A stretch of 64,000 nucleotides of DNA. It comes from an uncultured cyanobacterium (GTDB lineage Bacteria > Cyanobacteriota > Cyanobacteriia > PCC-9006 > JAAUQQ01). The stretch is taken from NCBI GenBank assembly GCA_963718615.1, contig OY970368.1, positions 2,016,001-2,080,000 of the forward strand. Reading direction: 5' to 3'. Positions 20,139-23,357 of this stretch are shown in pieces (position 1 is the first letter of the stretch; each line of letters starts with the position of its first letter). The notes beneath the pieces are model-generated. The model worked only from the letters and a program-made list of their open reading frames with translations, ran no database searches and was not told the origin of the DNA. The position numbers and the translations under genes were made by a program.

Positions 20139-20879
20139 ATGGCTCAGCGCTTAAGGGTGGTGGAACTGTTTCTGGCTGTAGGTTTGACCGCATCAATGGC
20201 AGCCTGCACAGCCCCCTCTGACTTGAGAGGGAAAAGGACAGCAGAAAGTACGCCAGCTCCGGCGGTGGAATCAAGCGTAGAAAGACAGGAAGGCGGCGAA
20301 GGCGGTGAGGGCGGCGAAGAGGGTGCTGCCACCGCAAACTTGAATTGGGGGAATCGGTTTGACGAGGCTTCAGTGATTTCTGGCTTTACCAAGGCAACAG
20401 AAATCGATCAAGCTACATTAGAAGCAAGTACTTTCTATGTTCAAACCTTAGGAGTACCCGCACGAACACTCATGCAAGAGGCTATGGTGCGCAAAGGTGA
20501 GCGGTTATTTGAGCAGGCGAATTGTACGGCTTGTCATCTGGCGACGGTGAAGACAGGTTCTTCTCCGATTCGGGCTTTAGATCACCAAACCATTCATCCC
20601 TATACTGATTTGCTACTCCATGATCTAGGGCCAGGATTAGCGGATAACCGACCGGATTTTGAGGCAAGTGGCCAGGAATGGCGGACATCACCGCTATGGG
20701 GGCTAGGGTTAACGCAGACGGTTTTGCCGTTTTCAGGATATCTTCATGATGGACGTGCCCGAACCGTGGAGGAAGCGATTCTTTGGCATGGGGGCGAGGC
20801 GGAAAAGGCTCAACAGAGGTTTGTTAAGCTATCGCTGAAGGATCGTCAGGCACTATTAAAGTTTTTGAATACTTTGTAA
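20139..20879 (+). CDS. Chimeric lipoprotein: imelysin/IrpA-like N-terminus fused to the C-terminal half of a di-heme oxidoreductase (DUF1111); possible deletion remnant
   Basis: Lipobox MAAC and EGGEGGEGG, then FYVQTLGVPAR, a single CTACH, YTDLLLHD, EWRTSPLWGLG and YLHDGRART. Confidence 0.75.
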   Translation: MAQRLRVVELFLAVGLTASMAACTAPSDLRGKRTAESTPAPAVESSVERQEGGEGGEGGEEGAATANLNWGNRFDEASVISGFTKATEIDQATLEASTFYVQTLGVPARTLMQEAMVRKGERLFEQANCTACHLATVKTGSSPIRALDHQTIHPYTDLLLHDLGPGLADNRPDFEASGQEWRTSPLWGLGLTQTVLPFSGYLHDGRARTVEEAILWHGGEAEKAQQRFVKLSLKDRQALLKFLNTL

Positions 20880-21062
20880 TACCCGAAGCAAGATGTGATC
20901 CCTTGACCTTGGTCTATGGCTACCGATCGCCCATAACCTATGCTAGCTTGGAGCCGAATCCGCAGCAGCTTGCAAGGCAGCGGTTCAGGTTCTGTCTGCC
21001 TGACCGGCTCGCTTGGCCTCTGGCCAATGCGTGTGTCACCCAGCATGTTGCCCAGATTCACC

Positions 21063-21136
21063 GCCGGATTTGCTCAGTGGTCGAGCCGCTGTCTCACGGA
21101 TAGTGCAGGTGGGTTCGAATCCCACATCCAGCTCCA
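21063..21136 (+). tRNA. Atypical tRNA-like gene, anticodon CAC (Val)
   Basis: GCCGGAT/ATCCAGC acceptor with C3·A70 mismatch, GCTC/GAGC D-stem, GCTGT-CTCACGG-ATAGT, GTGGG-TTCGAAT-CCCAC, T-CCA end. Confidence 0.7.
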
Positions 21137-21139
21137 ACC

Positions 21140-21214
21140 CAAAAGTTAGCTCACTGGTAGAGCATCAGACTCATACTCTGACTGTTGCAGGTTCGATTCC
21201 TGCACTTTTAACCA
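21140..21214 (+). tRNA. Atypical tRNA, anticodon CAT (Met/Ile2-like)
   Basis: CAAAAGT/ACTTTTA acceptor with C1·A72, GCTC/GAGC, TCAGA-CTCATAC-TCTGA, GCAGG-TTCGATT-CCTGC, A-CCA end. Confidence 0.8.
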
Positions 21215-21218
21215 CCCC

Positions 21219-21540
21219 GCCTTTGGGTTAAGAGGCAACTGATTTGGGATCAGTCCAACGCTGTTTTTAAAGACTTCGCTGGGCCAGTGTTCCGCCTCTG
21301 TTGGGCTTCGGCTCAGACAGAAGCAGCAGCCCAAGGCTTGCGCGATCGCCCTCTGCTTTGGTTCCCACAGAACGGTTTGCCCTCGCTTGAGTTTGTCCTT
21401 CCTCCCCGACGTTTCCCTAGACTAGAACTTCGGCTCAGGTCCCTTGGAAATGGAGGCGCAACGAACGACAAATCCGCCCCAGTTCAAATTTTTAGCGCTG
21501 TCTTCGGGCATCCTAGGGTTTGGGTTGAGGCTTAATCCAG
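21219..21540 (+). ncRNA. Split tRNA-Pro(TGG)-like structured RNA upstream of slipin
   Basis: D-arm GCCT/AGGC and anticodon arm ACTGA-TTTGGGA-TCAGT, then ~280 nt with several TTCG-capped stems. Confidence 0.6.
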
Positions 21541-21626
21541 CGATCGCACCCCCTGCGTGACCCCTGCCATGGCCCATCGTCCGCCCCACCGCTGTGAACC
21601 CGTGCCTTGCGGAGTCTTTGTCTTTT

Positions 21627-21646
21627 ATGTAGCATTTGTATTACAT
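21627..21646. promoter_or_regulatory. Imperfect palindrome, candidate repressor operator
   Basis: ATGTAGCATTTGTATTACAT, 63 nt upstream of the slipin ATG. Confidence 0.45.
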
Positions 21647-21651
21647 ACGCC

Positions 21652-21703
21652 TGTTGTCTGTGAGTGTTGTCTGTGAGCGTCGTCTGTGAGCGTCGTCTGT
21701 GAG
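21652..21703 (+). repeat. 4 x 13-bp tandem repeat
   Basis: TGTTGTCTGTGAG x2 then CGTCGTCTGTGAG x2, immediately before the slipin start. Confidence 0.9.
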
Positions 21704-21709
21704 TGAAAT

Positions 21710-23239
21710 ATGTTCAAGACCTTCTACATCAAACCCAGCGAGCGGGGGATGCTCTATCACCGCAGCCACTTTAAGCGACTGTTGCGCCCTGGCATTCATC
21801 GTTTTGTGGGCTGGCACTGGCGCGTGCAGTGTTTTGATCTAAACCAGCCGGAGGTGGAGCTACAGGATGCGGAATTGCTGCTGCAAAACCATGGCGACCT
21901 GCTGCGGCAACACCTCATTGTAGTACGCACGGCCTTTAATGAAGCGGCTCTGGTGCGGTTGGGGCAGCGCTGGCTGAGTGTGGCTCCAAACCAATTGCGT
22001 TTGTTTTGGCGGGGCCATGTGGAGGTTGCCGTCGAGCGGTTCAACCTGAACGAGAATCTAGAATTGCCTGCCGAGTTTGTCCAGCAACTTCGTGGCGAGT
22101 CGATTCAGGGACTTCAGCGAGTGGAACTGGCGGAGTTTGAGGTCGGGTTGCTGTTTGTCCAGGATAATTTTGTTCGCCCTTTGGAACCCGGAGAGCATGC
22201 CTTTTGGCAGTTTGGCCGTCAGGTGATGGTGCGATCGCTCAATCGTAATCTCCCCAATCCCGACTTTCCCTTTGAGAATGTCTTGCTGGACCAACATCCT
22301 GAGTTTGTTGACACCTACTGTGAGCGGGTAGAGCTTACACCAGAGCAGGTGGCCATTATTCGCCACCGAGGCCAATGCATCGATATTTTGCCGCCTTCTA
22401 GCCGTCGCCTGTATTGGCAGGGGGTTGGGGTCGAAATCCTCGAAATCGAGGCAGAACGAAAATTGTCGCCTCAGTTGGTCGCAGAACTGGTTTCTGGTTC
22501 GTCTGAGGTCTTGGATCACAGTTTGCCTCACCTCTATGTCCATCAGGTTCCTCAGCATTCGATTGGGATGTTGGTCATAGATAGCGTAGTACAGGCACCG
22601 CTGGAGCCGGGGATTCACGCCTGGTGGTCGTTTGGACGGGCGATCGCCGCCACCAATATCAGCCTCAAGCTCCAAACCCTGGAGGTCTCAGGCCAAGAGA
22701 TTCTCTCCAAGGACAAAGTTCCCTTGCGACTCAATCTTTCCGCTGATTATCGGGTGACCGATCCGATGCAGGCGCTGGCTCAACTGACGAATATTTCCGA
22801 GTTCTTGTATAAGGAACTCCAGTTTGCGCTGCGGGCGGCGGTGGGAACGAAGAACTTAGATGCACTCTTGGAGGATAAGGGGGCGATCGATCGCAGTATC
22901 GCTGAATCTATGGCGGAAAAAACCGAGGGTTATGGTCTAGAGGTGCGATCGGTGGGCGTTAAGGACATCATTTTGCCGGGGGACATCAAAGACATTCTCG
23001 GCAAGGTAGTGGAAGCAGAAAAGTCGGCCCAGGCCAATGTGATCCGCCGCCGGGAAGAAACCGCCGCCACCCGCAGTATGCTGAACACGGCGCGGGTCAT
23101 GGAGGATAACCCGATCGCCCTACGGCTGAAGGAGTTGGAGGTGCTGGAGCGGATTGCCGAGAAGATCGATCGGATCAATGTCAACGGCAGTTTAGACAGC
23201 ATCTTGACCGAGCTGATTCAACTTAACCCATCTGCCTAG
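21710..23239 (+). CDS. Slipin family (SPFH/band-7) protein
   Basis: EVSGQEILSKDKVPLRLN, LQFALRAAVG, VKDIILPGDI and ANVIRRREETAATRSMLNTA. Confidence 0.92.
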   Translation: MFKTFYIKPSERGMLYHRSHFKRLLRPGIHRFVGWHWRVQCFDLNQPEVELQDAELLLQNHGDLLRQHLIVVRTAFNEAALVRLGQRWLSVAPNQLRLFWRGHVEVAVERFNLNENLELPAEFVQQLRGESIQGLQRVELAEFEVGLLFVQDNFVRPLEPGEHAFWQFGRQVMVRSLNRNLPNPDFPFENVLLDQHPEFVDTYCERVELTPEQVAIIRHRGQCIDILPPSSRRLYWQGVGVEILEIEAERKLSPQLVAELVSGSSEVLDHSLPHLYVHQVPQHSIGMLVIDSVVQAPLEPGIHAWWSFGRAIAATNISLKLQTLEVSGQEILSKDKVPLRLNLSADYRVTDPMQALAQLTNISEFLYKELQFALRAAVGTKNLDALLEDKGAIDRSIAESMAEKTEGYGLEVRSVGVKDIILPGDIKDILGKVVEAEKSAQANVIRRREETAATRSMLNTARVMEDNPIALRLKELEVLERIAEKIDRINVNGSLDSILTELIQLNPSA

Positions 23240-23357
23240 ATCCCCCCGGCATCTACAGTACCTTGCCATCCGTTAAGGAAAGCGCCAAACCGTGCCGCTG
23301 GTCGTTGCAGCCGCTGGCCGTCGCACTTTCTAGAAGCATACCTAAACTATTCAAAAA

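Follow-up and report, generated by a model that had tools for sequence, protein, structure and literature searches.

A conserved structured RNA with tRNA-like modules encoded upstream of a Band-7 gene in cyanobacteria

The DNA analysed here, hereafter called the window, is a stretch of 64,000 nucleotides from an uncultured cyanobacterium (contig OY970368.1), and all coordinates below are those of the window. A conserved structured RNA of about 550 nt is encoded at 21063-21616, directly upstream of a gene for a Band-7 protein and on the same strand. It is composed of two non-decoding cloverleaf mimics of tRNA, a third tRNA-like module devoid of an acceptor stem, and a multi-helix domain of 345 nt. 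The original prediction had let the element start at 21219 and had described it as a broken tRNA-Pro with a large insertion. Two complete tRNA-like units, 21063-21136 and 21140-21214, lie upstream of that position, and the supposed broken tRNA with its insertion represents the third module and the 3' domain of the larger RNA. The suggestion of a large non-coding RNA built on a tRNA scaffold was essentially right. The first mimic is preceded by a 5' leader (20968-21062, plus strand), as contigs from RNA libraries, identical to the window, extend the element upstream of 21063 and back to 20968 (library X3 from 20968, X2 from 20989 and X1 from 21007). The leader can be aligned with that of the closest relative, L003, from about 20950 onward. 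In a scan of 20800-21800, no sigma-70-like promoter site was detected, and one terminator-like site (21600-21612) was found in the same range, which is uninformative because shuffled sequences predict 1.0 such site.

The downstream gene (21710-23239, plus strand), located 496 nt downstream of unit 2, encodes a soluble SPFH/Band-7 protein of 509 aa (Pfam Band_7, PF01145, 107.1 bits against a cut-off of 23.6, residues 279-450). The protein consists of two N-terminal repeats of about 135 aa each (residues 1-134 versus 135-275, E 3e-10), the SPFH domain and a long C-terminal helix, and belongs to a long form, which has one N-terminal repeat more than the short, proteobacterial-type form. Its structural model has a pLDDT of 85.1, and its fold is matched best by stomatin, major vault protein and HflK/C. 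A total of 578 relatives of this gene were confirmed in a metagenome scan. For gene loci with at least 700 nt of upstream sequence, two T-loop motifs spaced by 60-95 nt, in the orientation of the gene, were found upstream in 85 out of 100, as compared with 0/100 in the reverse-strand control, in agreement with the remark in the original prediction that similar sequences occur upstream of slipins. A phage origin was considered and rejected: the viral contig collection contained only one relative of the Band-7 gene, and neither the long nor the short form matched any defence family of PADLOC-DB at E up to 0.01.

Unit 1 (21063-21136, plus strand) forms a cloverleaf with an encoded CCA and one acceptor-stem mismatch (Rfam tRNA, 40.5 bits; ARAGORN 'Val CAC'), and unit 2 (21140-21214, plus strand) forms a cloverleaf with a C1-A72 mismatch and an encoded ACCA (Rfam tRNA, 65 bits; ARAGORN 'Met CAT'). 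For comparison, 32 homologous elements from cyanobacteria and one Calidithermus were assembled into alignment A2. The acceptor, D and T helices of unit 1 (helices 1, 2 and 4) are 97-99% paired in A2, and the acceptor is followed by NCC in all 32 sequences and by CCA in 14 of them. Within the source genome, encoded CCA beyond the discriminator base is absent after every other tRNA gene found by ARAGORN. The anticodon loops of units 1 to 3 vary in length and sequence while the tRNA body is conserved. The loop of unit 1 ranges from 4 to 17 nt across the 32 elements; in unit 2, both sides are changed at all five pairs of the anticodon stem, and of the 30 seven-nt loops 12 have CAT as the 'anticodon' and the rest have one of 10 other triplets. 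As their anticodons lack conservation, the units are not being kept for decoding. Unit 2 is dispensable for decoding because the source genome carries two further CAT tRNAs and its own initiator, which is intron-split. Judging from these sequences, units 1 and 2 are non-decoding tRNA mimics, and their annotation as 'tRNA-Val' and 'tRNA-Met' following the ARAGORN calls is misleading.

Unit 3 is present in the window as a remnant (21219-21254, plus strand) consisting of a D-arm-like hairpin (GCCT/AGGC, 21219-21236) and an anticodon-arm-like hairpin (ACTGA-TTTGGGA-TCAGT, 21238-21254), both located, like every other motif listed in the original prediction, exactly where they had been read. The two hairpins correspond to A2 helices 9 (86.7% paired; 2/3 pairs changed on both sides) and 10 (96.0% paired; 5/5 pairs). 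The identity of this unit with a tRNA-Pro is not supported: neither ARAGORN nor Rfam gave a tRNA call at 21219-21300, no acceptor stem was found in any of the 32 elements, and the seven-nt loop is not conserved, showing 22 different sequences among the 32 relatives. Direct reading agrees that no T-arm follows in the source genome. At the junction (21255-21271, plus strand), relatives carry one to four extra hairpins and a T-arm that are deleted here, leaving the window gapped over A2 columns 259-422. The third T-loop motif is present in 26 of the 32 sequences and missing in the window, L032, L039, L074, L076 and L115. The suspected 3' truncation applies to unit 3, which lost the variable hairpins and the T-arm kept in those 26, and not to the RNA as a whole. 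Two further pairings were considered and rejected. An 'acceptor' pairing of the T-rich stretch after the T-arm of unit 3 with the 5' strand of unit 2 is broken by L038 and L079. A loop-loop pairing of the unit 3 loop with the CTTAATCC block is devoid of covariation, and relatives with a different loop keep the block.

The 3' domain (21272-21616, plus strand, 345 nt) is closed by the long-range helix P1 (A2 helix 14), in which 21272-21281 pair with 21607-21616; P1 is 91.3% paired, and 8 of its 10 pairs are changed on both sides. At helix P1b (21283-21289 with 21599-21605), the window pairs at only four of seven positions in the consensus register. A variable hairpin with a TTCG loop, TCTGTTGGGC-TTCG-GCTCAGACAGA (21297-21321, plus strand), forms locally without mismatch in the window; across A2 both the length and the sequence of this part are variable, and pairing in the consensus helix 17 reaches only 82.8%. 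Further downstream are a conserved GCAGCAG block and the 5' strand of P3 (21326-21345, plus strand), with partners at 21592-21595 and 21577-21585. Helix 18 is 97.7% paired and helix 19 is 90.2% paired, the latter with 6/8 pairs changed on both sides. A HIP1 site (21341-21348) is included in the 5' strand of P3. The 3' strands of P3, the GCAG/CTGT helix, P1b and P1 were all located in A2 and occupy 21577-21616 (plus strand).

Between these outer helices lies a central sub-domain (21380-21546, plus strand), supported by A2 and by the covariance model R1. This part includes P4 (21380-21390 with 21536-21546), P5 (21391-21400 with 21464-21473), a helix of 21476-21481 with 21526-21531 and a TTCG hairpin at 21495-21514, together with the conserved blocks TGAGT.., GAACG..ATTTG and CTTAATCCAG. 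Helices 20, 21, 24 and 25 are 81-93% paired, and 7, 7, 4 and 6 of their pairs are changed on both sides, including 7/8 pairs of the long stem (helix 21) and 6/7 of the TTCG hairpin (helix 25). In the window, GTTTGTCCTTC at 21391-21401 pairs with GAACGACAAAT at 21463-21473, and the inner pairs of the long stem are formed by CCTCC (21401-21405) with GGAGG (21452-21456) and TTTCC (21412-21416) with GGAAA (21446-21450); TGTC-TTCG-GGCA is located at 21499-21510 and AATCC at 21534-21538. The structure had been thought to stop at the HIP1 site at 21540. This site, GCGATCGC (21540-21547), forms the 3' strand of the conserved helix P4, and the RNA continues up to the closing helix that ends at 21616.

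The support for the structure is comparative. The structure of A2 was derived with RNAalifold and includes 128 pairs in 26 helices. As controls, the 3' partners were slid by 1-3 columns and 500 shuffles were made. The structure is 91.7% paired, against 33.9-39.6% with slid partners; changes on both sides were observed for 100 pairs (605 cells) against 42-53 pairs (93-141 cells), and the covariation score was 0.442 against 0.07-0.10, with 0/500 shuffles attaining any of these measures, the structure being favoured over both controls by its derivation from the same alignment of related sequences on which the counts were made. The window sequence alone folds no better than chance: 21215-21560 has a minimum free energy of -108.2 kcal/mol as a single sequence, with shuffles averaging -115.9 (z = +1.35), and 96 of 100 shuffles folded at least as well. 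Model R1, which covers 159 positions of the central sub-domain, matched the window with 70.3 bits (E 3.6e-13) and recovered 14 of the 20 long-form loci that had been left out of model building. Helix P4 was predicted again on a model-based alignment of 44 sequences, though it is absent from the structure of R1.

The element is present in a single copy per genome and is tied to the Band-7 gene. R1 gave one match in the source genome and matched 7 of the 151 genomes of the class; all seven carry the Band-7 gene, and each match is located just upstream of it. Neither nhmmer (0/77 loci) nor R1 (0/26) detected homology between the 3' domain and the leaders in short-form (proteobacterial-type) loci, and a resemblance seen by eye in L045 is therefore unsupported. 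The Rfam check proposed originally was carried out for the window and 15 related loci: no family covers the region, and only tRNA models reach the gathering level. A permissive Rfam scan of 20850-21750 (E up to 10) gave only chance-level matches to miRNA and lncRNA families and a weak match to YrlA. In the literature on tRNA-like RNAs, tRNA arrays or non-coding RNAs with bacterial SPFH/stomatin proteins, nothing was found on the present RNA.

Contigs with 0 differences from the window were found in three RNA libraries of three studies, covering 21007-21231 and 21289-21611 (X1), 20989-21212 (X2) and 20968-21138 (X3). The sequence of the element is thus present in RNA libraries; these contigs are not proof of transcription, because DNA may contaminate RNA libraries, and they carry neither ends nor strand. 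No RNA contig lies on the Band-7 coding region or on 21232-21288, which is uninformative as to transcription there. The interval between the RNA and the gene contains a 16-bp palindrome, GTA-N10-TAC (21629-21644), which may be a putative operator or part of a promoter; a matching motif is located 7-15 nt past P1 in 8 of the 32 elements. Immediately before the start codon is a 13-nt tandem repeat of 4.2 copies (21652-21705, plus strand; Tandem Repeats Finder score 80), and a near-identical contig of run X4 has one repeat unit fewer. The spacing from the 3' end of P1 to the start codon is 93 nt in the window (21617-21709) and 21-23 nt in L031, L036, L037 and L065. The distance between RNA and gene is not fixed, because the central sub-domain is located 630-880 nt from the start codon in L041, L066, L075 and L082.

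The gene for the RNA ligase RtcB is the next same-strand gene in five of the nine short-form (proteobacterial-type) loci examined, and RlaP in one, while RtcB follows the Band-7 gene in none of the eight long-form loci examined. The source genome has a single RtcB copy, 21.5 kb upstream and on the opposite strand. Among cyanobacteria, RtcB is present in 19 of 26 carriers as compared with 123 of 275 non-carriers, and is not detectable in 7 of the 26 carriers. It lies about 4 kb away in G005 and 0.12 to 2.4 Mb away in G118, G184 and G191, and is on other contigs in the remaining carriers. A conserved physical linkage to RtcB in cyanobacteria was therefore rejected, the two being unlinked in three single-contig carriers with readable distance.

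Taken together, we consider it probable that a single conserved RNA, structured and non-coding, is encoded at this locus and represents an enlarged, cyanobacterial version of the 'Band-7-associated tRNA', for which a partnership with Band-7 proteins in RNA-repair systems of the RtcB type has been predicted. If this reading holds, the element is among the larger conserved structured bacterial RNAs without an Rfam family or an experimental study (about 550 nt, 26 covarying helices). As to how it may act, transcription of the RNA would occur together with the Band-7 mRNA or immediately ahead of it, and the product would fold into a stable RNA that forms part of a Band-7 oligomer as its RNA subunit. 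Enzymes that recognize the tRNA shape, such as RNase P, nucleotidyltransferases of the CCA-adding or RlaP type and, in trans, the RtcB ligase, would then find tRNA-like handles in the tRNA-shaped modules, and attachment of the RNA to the Band-7 protein would fall to the 3' domain, in analogy to the tethering of Ro60/Rsr by Y RNA. We infer the processing of the RNA, its protein binding and its repair role, and the mechanism of an RNA subunit with tRNA-like handles for repair enzymes is put forward tentatively, as a plausible model that falls somewhat short of being probable. Because the cyanobacterial RNA-protein pair stands alone, away from RtcB, its own function can be told apart from that of the ligase. 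The locus offers a concrete and testable object for the role of soluble SPFH proteins and predicted tRNA-like RNAs in RNA-damage responses.

Alternatively, the element could be the 5' untranslated leader of the Band-7 mRNA, of which the folding or processing sets the level of Band-7 protein; for instance, P1, beside the ribosome-binding site, could be altered when the tRNA mimics are damaged or are cleaved by RNase P or RNase Z. RNA and gene are on the same strand, no sigma-70-like promoter was found between them, and the spacing of 21-23 nt between P1 and the start codon in four elements leaves little space for a separate promoter there and is no less compatible with a leader than with a free RNA. 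A fold of 550 nt and 26 helices with three tRNA-like modules, however, far exceeds the needs of known leaders, the distance to the start codon is variable (up to the 630-880 nt of four loci), and the palindrome between RNA and gene hints at separate control of the gene in the eight elements that have it. Such cis-acting control is compatible with the RNA being a partner of the Band-7 protein and does not exclude it; as the explanation of the element we regard it as rather unlikely.

The strongly variable loops of units 1-3 on a conserved tRNA body could also point to a decoy or sensor, in which non-decoding mimics serve as bait for anticodon nucleases and their cleavage protects tRNAs or yields a cyclic-phosphate damage signal that feeds RtcB. 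The proteobacterial linkage of the system to RtcB fits such a role, as does the location of the element directly after ordinary tRNA gene arrays in several proteobacterial loci. In PMC10159003, tRNA halves with cyclic phosphate ends are proposed as activators of the Rtc operon in Salmonella, in line with such a signal. This account is improbable, however, as unit 1 loops of 4-17 nt are unlike any real anticodon loop, no nuclease gene is linked at the window locus, and neither the conserved 345-nt domain nor the Band-7 protein is given a role. The tRNA arrays that precede the element in some proteobacterial loci, together with the visible degeneration of unit 3, which is without a T-arm here, might instead suggest a decayed tRNA array, with units 1 and 2 as spare tRNA genes, unit 3 as a tRNA-Pro pseudogene and the rest as spacer; mobile tRNA arrays often encode CCA, as is known from the cyanobacterial tRNA-cluster literature, and so do the present units. 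Yet the 'spacer' contains 14 covarying helices, including long-range ones, the conservation spans cyanobacteria to a Calidithermus, the position with respect to one gene family is constant in 85/100 loci, and the anticodons are not conserved. Decay of an array, a very improbable reading, is already contradicted by the covariation, the synteny and the recovery of held-out loci by R1. Still harder to credit is an intron-like or split tRNA joined by RtcB, or a protein-coding stretch, which would draw on the succession of a tRNA 5' part and a long structured stretch, on the presence of RtcB in the genome and on an ORF of 82 aa at 21287-21535. No relative has a downstream 3' tRNA half or acceptor strand, the T-arm precedes rather than follows the 3' domain in 26/32 relatives, no Rfam intron matched at E up to 10, and no junction joining 21254 to a downstream 3' half was present among the RNA contigs, which are poor evidence for rare joints. 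Of the intron-like element needing an RtcB-type ligase in the original prediction, the neighbourhood of RtcB in proteobacterial-type loci (5/9) remains, and the intron, devoid of a 3' half, an exon junction and an Rfam match, is not supported. The ORF is present in the window and not conserved in relatives, the indels are not multiples of three, and the longest stop-free stretch of the domain is 31-114 codons in the 32 sequences and under 60 codons in 24 of them; the region is thus not protein-coding; coding capacity would have refuted the original prediction.

Among known systems, the closest is the b7a-tRNA, which a passage of 10.1101/312249, citing Burroughs and Aravind 2016, describes next to Band-7 and RtcB. 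As in that description, non-decoding tRNA-shaped genes adjoin a soluble Band-7/SPFH gene on the same strand, and RtcB, or RlaP at one locus, is the next gene in proteobacterial relatives. The window differs in that two full mimics are joined by a third module lacking an acceptor and by a covarying 3' domain of 345 nt, and in the long form of the protein with its extra N-terminal repeat; the location within an RtcB-type repair cluster, typical of the description, is not found in the source genome, where RtcB is not adjacent. As compared with this citing passage, the predicted kind of RNA is already known, and the window element represents a larger form of it. The same source describes for YrlA/Y RNA a tRNA-like domain and genes located by Ro60 (Rsr) and often by RtcB (10.1101/312249). 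Like the window element, YrlA is a non-coding RNA of bacteria that contains a tRNA-like domain, and each of the two has its gene beside that of a ring-shaped RNA-binding or scaffold protein. In contrast to YrlA, the partner here is an SPFH and not a TROVE protein, and the RNA is about five times longer. Identity with YrlA (RF02553) was rejected, the match of 19.3 bits (gathering level 69, E 0.33) only connecting the T-arm of the first unit with the D-arm of the second.

The large structured bacterial RNAs GOLLD, ROOL and OLE are Rfam families that are often encoded near tRNA genes. The present RNA is alike in its size class, hundreds of nucleotides with many helices, and in the tRNA genes near some loci, and differs in that it is tied to one protein family and that none of these families matched at the gathering level in the window or the 15 related loci, or at E up to 10 in 20850-21750. 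As for the eukaryotic vault, the full-length model of the Band-7 protein matches the major vault protein over about 590 alignment columns (E 1.5e-13 to 5e-12), ranking directly after stomatin; beta repeats at the N terminus, an SPFH-like domain and a long helix are common to the two proteins, and each is accompanied by a non-coding RNA of small or medium size. The N-terminal half alone, however, matches the vault repeats weakly (Foldseek E 0.01-0.04; VIA Z 3.1-3.2, with rmsd 14 A at Z 3.2) and agrees better with prohibitin, erlin and HflK, whose first beta-meander it matches at Z 5.7-5.9 (43 residues). We would venture, as a distinctly doubtful speculation, that the soluble Band-7 protein, with its tandem beta repeats, SPFH 'shoulder' and long helix, may form a closed ring or cage carrying the 550-nt RNA, a vault-like ribonucleoprotein on which the tRNA-shaped modules would be exposed as docking sites for RNA repair. 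If true, the Band-7/tRNA-mimic and the Ro60/Y-RNA particles would represent two prokaryotic roots of the protein and RNA parts of the vault.

The stretch at 21219-21547, originally predicted to be a tRNA-Pro-like 5' half with an ornate insertion of about 280 nt, is part of a longer RNA (about 21063-21616) consisting of three tRNA-like units and a closed 3' domain. Two complete tRNA-like genes, not used in that prediction, are located directly upstream: unit 1 at 21063-21136 (Rfam tRNA, 40.5 bits; ARAGORN 'Val CAC') and unit 2 at 21140-21214 (Rfam tRNA, 65 bits; ARAGORN 'Met CAT'). By direct reading of the sequence, all the predicted motifs were found in place: the D-arm-like hairpin (21219-21236), the arm ACTGA-TTTGGGA-TCAGT (21238-21254), a TTCG hairpin (21297-21321), the long nested stem (21391-21401 with 21463-21473), TGTC-TTCG-GGCA (21499-21510), AATCC (21534-38) and the HIP1 site (21540-47). 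The segment 21215-21560 alone gave no thermodynamic signal (-108.2 kcal/mol; mean of shuffled sequences -115.9; z +1.35; 96 of 100 shuffles folded at least as well), and no Rfam match to the predicted stretch was obtained even at E up to 10.

The structure was recognized by comparison of 32 non-identical long-form elements, each taken from 15 nt ahead of unit 1 up to the start codon and aligned over 1290 columns. Application of RNAalifold segment by segment, followed by counting of pairs, gave a consensus of 128 pairs in 26 helices. Against controls that flatter the structure, since the alignment used for counting also gave the structure and its sequences are related, 91.7% of cells were paired (33.9-39.6% with the 3' partners slid by 1-3 columns), 100 pairs and 605 cells were changed on both sides (42-53 and 93-141 slid), and the covariation score was 0.442 (0.070-0.098 slid; shuffled mean 0.206), none of 500 shuffles reaching any observed structure measure. 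The margin is large despite this flattery and extends to the long-range helices, about 330 nt apart. The 345-nt 3' domain is closed by the helix P1 (21272-81 with 21607-16), with both-side changes at eight of ten pairs, and includes a GCAG/CTGT helix (21326-29 with 21592-95), P3 (21335-45 with 21577-85), P4 (21380-90 with 21536-46), P5 (21391-21400 with 21464-73), a short helix (21476-81 with 21526-31) and a TTCG hairpin (21495-21514). The structure does not stop at the HIP1 site of 21540, as had been proposed; this site is the 3' strand of P4, and the other HIP1 site in the region likewise forms a strand of a helix.

A covariance model of the central sub-domain, R1 (159 positions, with only 11 pairs in its automatic structure), matched 14 of 20 held-out long-form loci but none of 26 short-form (proteobacterial-type) loci. 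Three of the six misses had less than 370 nt of upstream DNA, and the other three were from a divergent clade (41% protein identity). P4, though outside the structure of R1, was predicted again by RNAalifold on a 44-sequence alignment based on R1, with compensatory changes in 11-12 sequences at three pairs.

Mapped to the window, the consensus folds units 1 and 2 as cloverleaves. Their tRNA body is kept, with nearly invariant D- and T-arm sequences and covarying acceptor and anticodon stems; the decoding loop is not kept among the 32 sequences. The loop of unit 1 varies from 4 to 17 nt, and the triplet of unit 2 is CAT in 12 of the 30 seven-nt loops, ten other triplets occupying the remainder. 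ARAGORN assigned almost any anticodon, or abnormal loops, to the upstream units of related loci. Both units carry an encoded CCA, found in none of the ordinary tRNA genes listed by ARAGORN for this genome; unit 1 is followed by NCC in all 32 sequences and by CCA in 14. Unit 2 is dispensable for decoding, because the genome has two other CAT tRNAs and an intron-containing initiator. The canonical 5' half of the latter (G000:C1:849799, + strand, outside the window) is interrupted inside the anticodon loop, then followed by unrelated sequence, and is absent from the ARAGORN listing; presumably it is the group I intron-containing initiator tRNA of some cyanobacteria.

In relatives, unit 3 consists of a D-arm, an anticodon-like arm, one to four small hairpins and a T-arm; an acceptor stem was found in no relative. 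The D-arm is helix 9 of the consensus and the 'anticodon' arm helix 10, with both-side changes at all five pairs. The assignment to tRNA-Pro is not sustained, the loop read as 'TGG, Pro' having 22 different sequences among the 32 relatives. The lack of a T-arm after this half was correctly noted for the window; the piece was lost here and is kept, together with extra hairpins, by L003, the closest relative, and by L005 and L006 of a second genus. The T-loop of unit 3 is present in 26 of the 32 elements and absent from the window, L032, L039, L074, L076 and L115, indicating that it was lost more than once. A protein-coding reading of the region is contradicted, the 3' domain having a longest stop-free run of 31-114 codons across the 32 sequences, and so are the readings as an intron and as a decayed tRNA array.

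A DNA search of 61 genomes of the class detected the stretch in six of the seven genomes of the window's family. Loci were then fetched by protein relatives, 53 from one-genome-per-species contigs (Chamaesiphon, Chroococcidiopsis, Mastigocoleus, Altericista, Aliinostoc, Nostoc, Waterburya, a Calidithermus and many Beta- and Gammaproteobacteria) and 80 of 578 confirmed metagenomic matches. For 100 loci with at least 700 nt upstream and a match from the protein N-terminus (14 partial-match loci and those with shorter upstream DNA being excluded), the same-strand upstream 1 kb contained two T-loop motifs 60-95 nt apart in 85, only unpaired motifs in 11 and no motif in 4; on the opposite strand, such a pair was found in none of the 100. 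The long-form gene is present in 26 of 301 sampled genomes of the class (19 of 270 high-quality), once each, and the RNA is present in one copy in the window's genome. Under stricter filters, R1 matched 7 of 151 genomes, all carriers of the gene and each just upstream of it, and none without the gene. In L041 and L066 (1617-1754) and in L075 and L082 (about 215-379), the central sub-domain precedes the Band-7 start codon by 630-880 nt, against the usual about 100-250, indicating an insertion between RNA and gene. In five proteobacterial loci (L045, L047, L049, L051 and L056), same-strand arrays of roughly 6 to 12 tRNA genes of ordinary appearance precede the tRNA-mimic pair, and L045 has a hairpin with a T-run between this pair and the leader after it.

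The first downstream same-strand ORF was RtcB in five of nine examined short-form loci (L047, L048, L051, L057 and L061) and RlaP in one (L060); it was RtcB in none of eight long-form loci. The only RtcB of the window's genome (G000:C1:2014491-2015582, - strand, 416.9 bits) is located 21.5 kb upstream of the RNA on the opposite strand, about 420 nt before the first base of the window. All of five other cyanobacterial carriers have RtcB, far from the gene in the three with readable distance. In G005, of the window's family, RtcB shares contig and strand with the gene, about 4 kb upstream; it is unlinked in other cyanobacterial carriers. Within the class sample, in which kin are not independent, RtcB was found in 19 of 26 carriers and 123 of 275 non-carriers, and one carrier clade is altogether without RtcB.

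Contigs from three public RNA libraries of three studies and one run of unrecorded kind were placed on 20880-23300. Those without any difference from the window cover 21007-21231 and 21289-21611 (X1), 20989-21212 (X2) and 20968-21138 (X3), the 323-nt contig of X1 covering the 3' domain almost end to end; such contigs indicate that the sequence occurs in RNA libraries and not where the RNA ends, from which strand it comes or how abundant it is, and they may stem from DNA carry-over. Two contigs (X2 and X3) match only the 3' end of unit 2 (21183-21214) before running into a different unit-3-like D-arm, indicating related elements of other organisms in the same libraries.

Taken together, the results show an RNA that is conserved, covaries and has tRNA-shaped modules. 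It keeps a fixed place before one protein family, is single copy and occurs in RNA libraries. In the most likely mechanism, transcription would start from a promoter upstream of 20968 and might run on into the gene; the distance from P1 to the start codon is only 21-23 nt in four relatives. Enzymes of tRNA processing would then cut or cap the RNA at its tRNA-like borders, and a Band-7 oligomer would take it up as its RNA subunit and act in the response to RNA damage, with RtcB working in trans. Two alternatives are live, a leader that acts purely in cis to regulate the gene and a decoy or sensor for nucleases, and neither need exclude a role as RNA subunit.

The same-strand gene that follows the RNA (21710-23239) codes for an SPFH/Band_7 protein of 509 aa (Band_7, 107.1 bits). 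A GTA-N10-TAC palindrome (21629-21644), 12 nt past the closing helix, may be an operator or promoter part for this gene; a matching motif follows P1 by 7-15 nt in 8 of the 32 elements, which belong to the window's family and to Nostocales-like loci, with none from Chamaesiphon. A 13-nt tandem repeat (21652-21705; 4.2 copies, 92% matches) directly precedes the start codon, and a near-identical X4 contig lacks exactly one unit at 21669, indicating variation in copy number between strains. Upstream of the RNA, an ORF (20139-20879, + strand) aligns with the di-haem oxidoreductase profile (DHOR, 499 positions) at positions 337-499 only; either its true start is further upstream in another frame or ORF, or it is a gene fragment.

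The AlphaFold model of the protein (pLDDT 85.1, 20-sequence alignment) contains four beta units of five strands each (residues 2-112 and 135-245), the SPFH domain and a 60-residue helix, and lacks a membrane anchor. Residues 1-134 are repeated as residues 135-275 (27% identity, E 3e-10), and both repeats start like the SPFH domain (E 8e-9); the first repeat is missing from the proteobacterial forms, which have about 377 aa. The language-model atlas placed the protein with SPFH clusters, and PADLOC gave no match for it.

This kind of RNA is already known as an in-silico prediction from 2016, the Band-7-associated tRNA, and a passage of bioRxiv 10.1101/312249, which places it beside Band-7 and RtcB and cites Burroughs and Aravind 2016, describes its existence as not experimentally validated at that time; a literature search on tRNA-like RNAs with SPFH or stomatin found nothing on such an RNA. 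To this, the present locus adds the covariation-supported architecture of the cyanobacterial long form, with three modules and a 345-nt closed domain, the evidence that it is a sequence family separate from the proteobacterial leaders, its independence from RtcB adjacency and its presence in RNA libraries. For the protein, Foldseek with the full model listed stomatin first (E 6.5e-15), major vault protein next (about 590 columns, E 1.5e-13 to 5e-12), and then HflK/C, prohibitin, erlin and flotillin. When folded by itself (pLDDT 89.2), the N-terminal half was most similar to prohibitin, erlin and HflK, at their first beta-meander (Z 5.7-5.9, 43 residues), and its similarity to the vault repeats was weak (Z 3.1-3.2, Foldseek E 0.01-0.04). 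Hence the likeness between the Band-7 protein and major vault protein is one of overall plan and not an established relationship.
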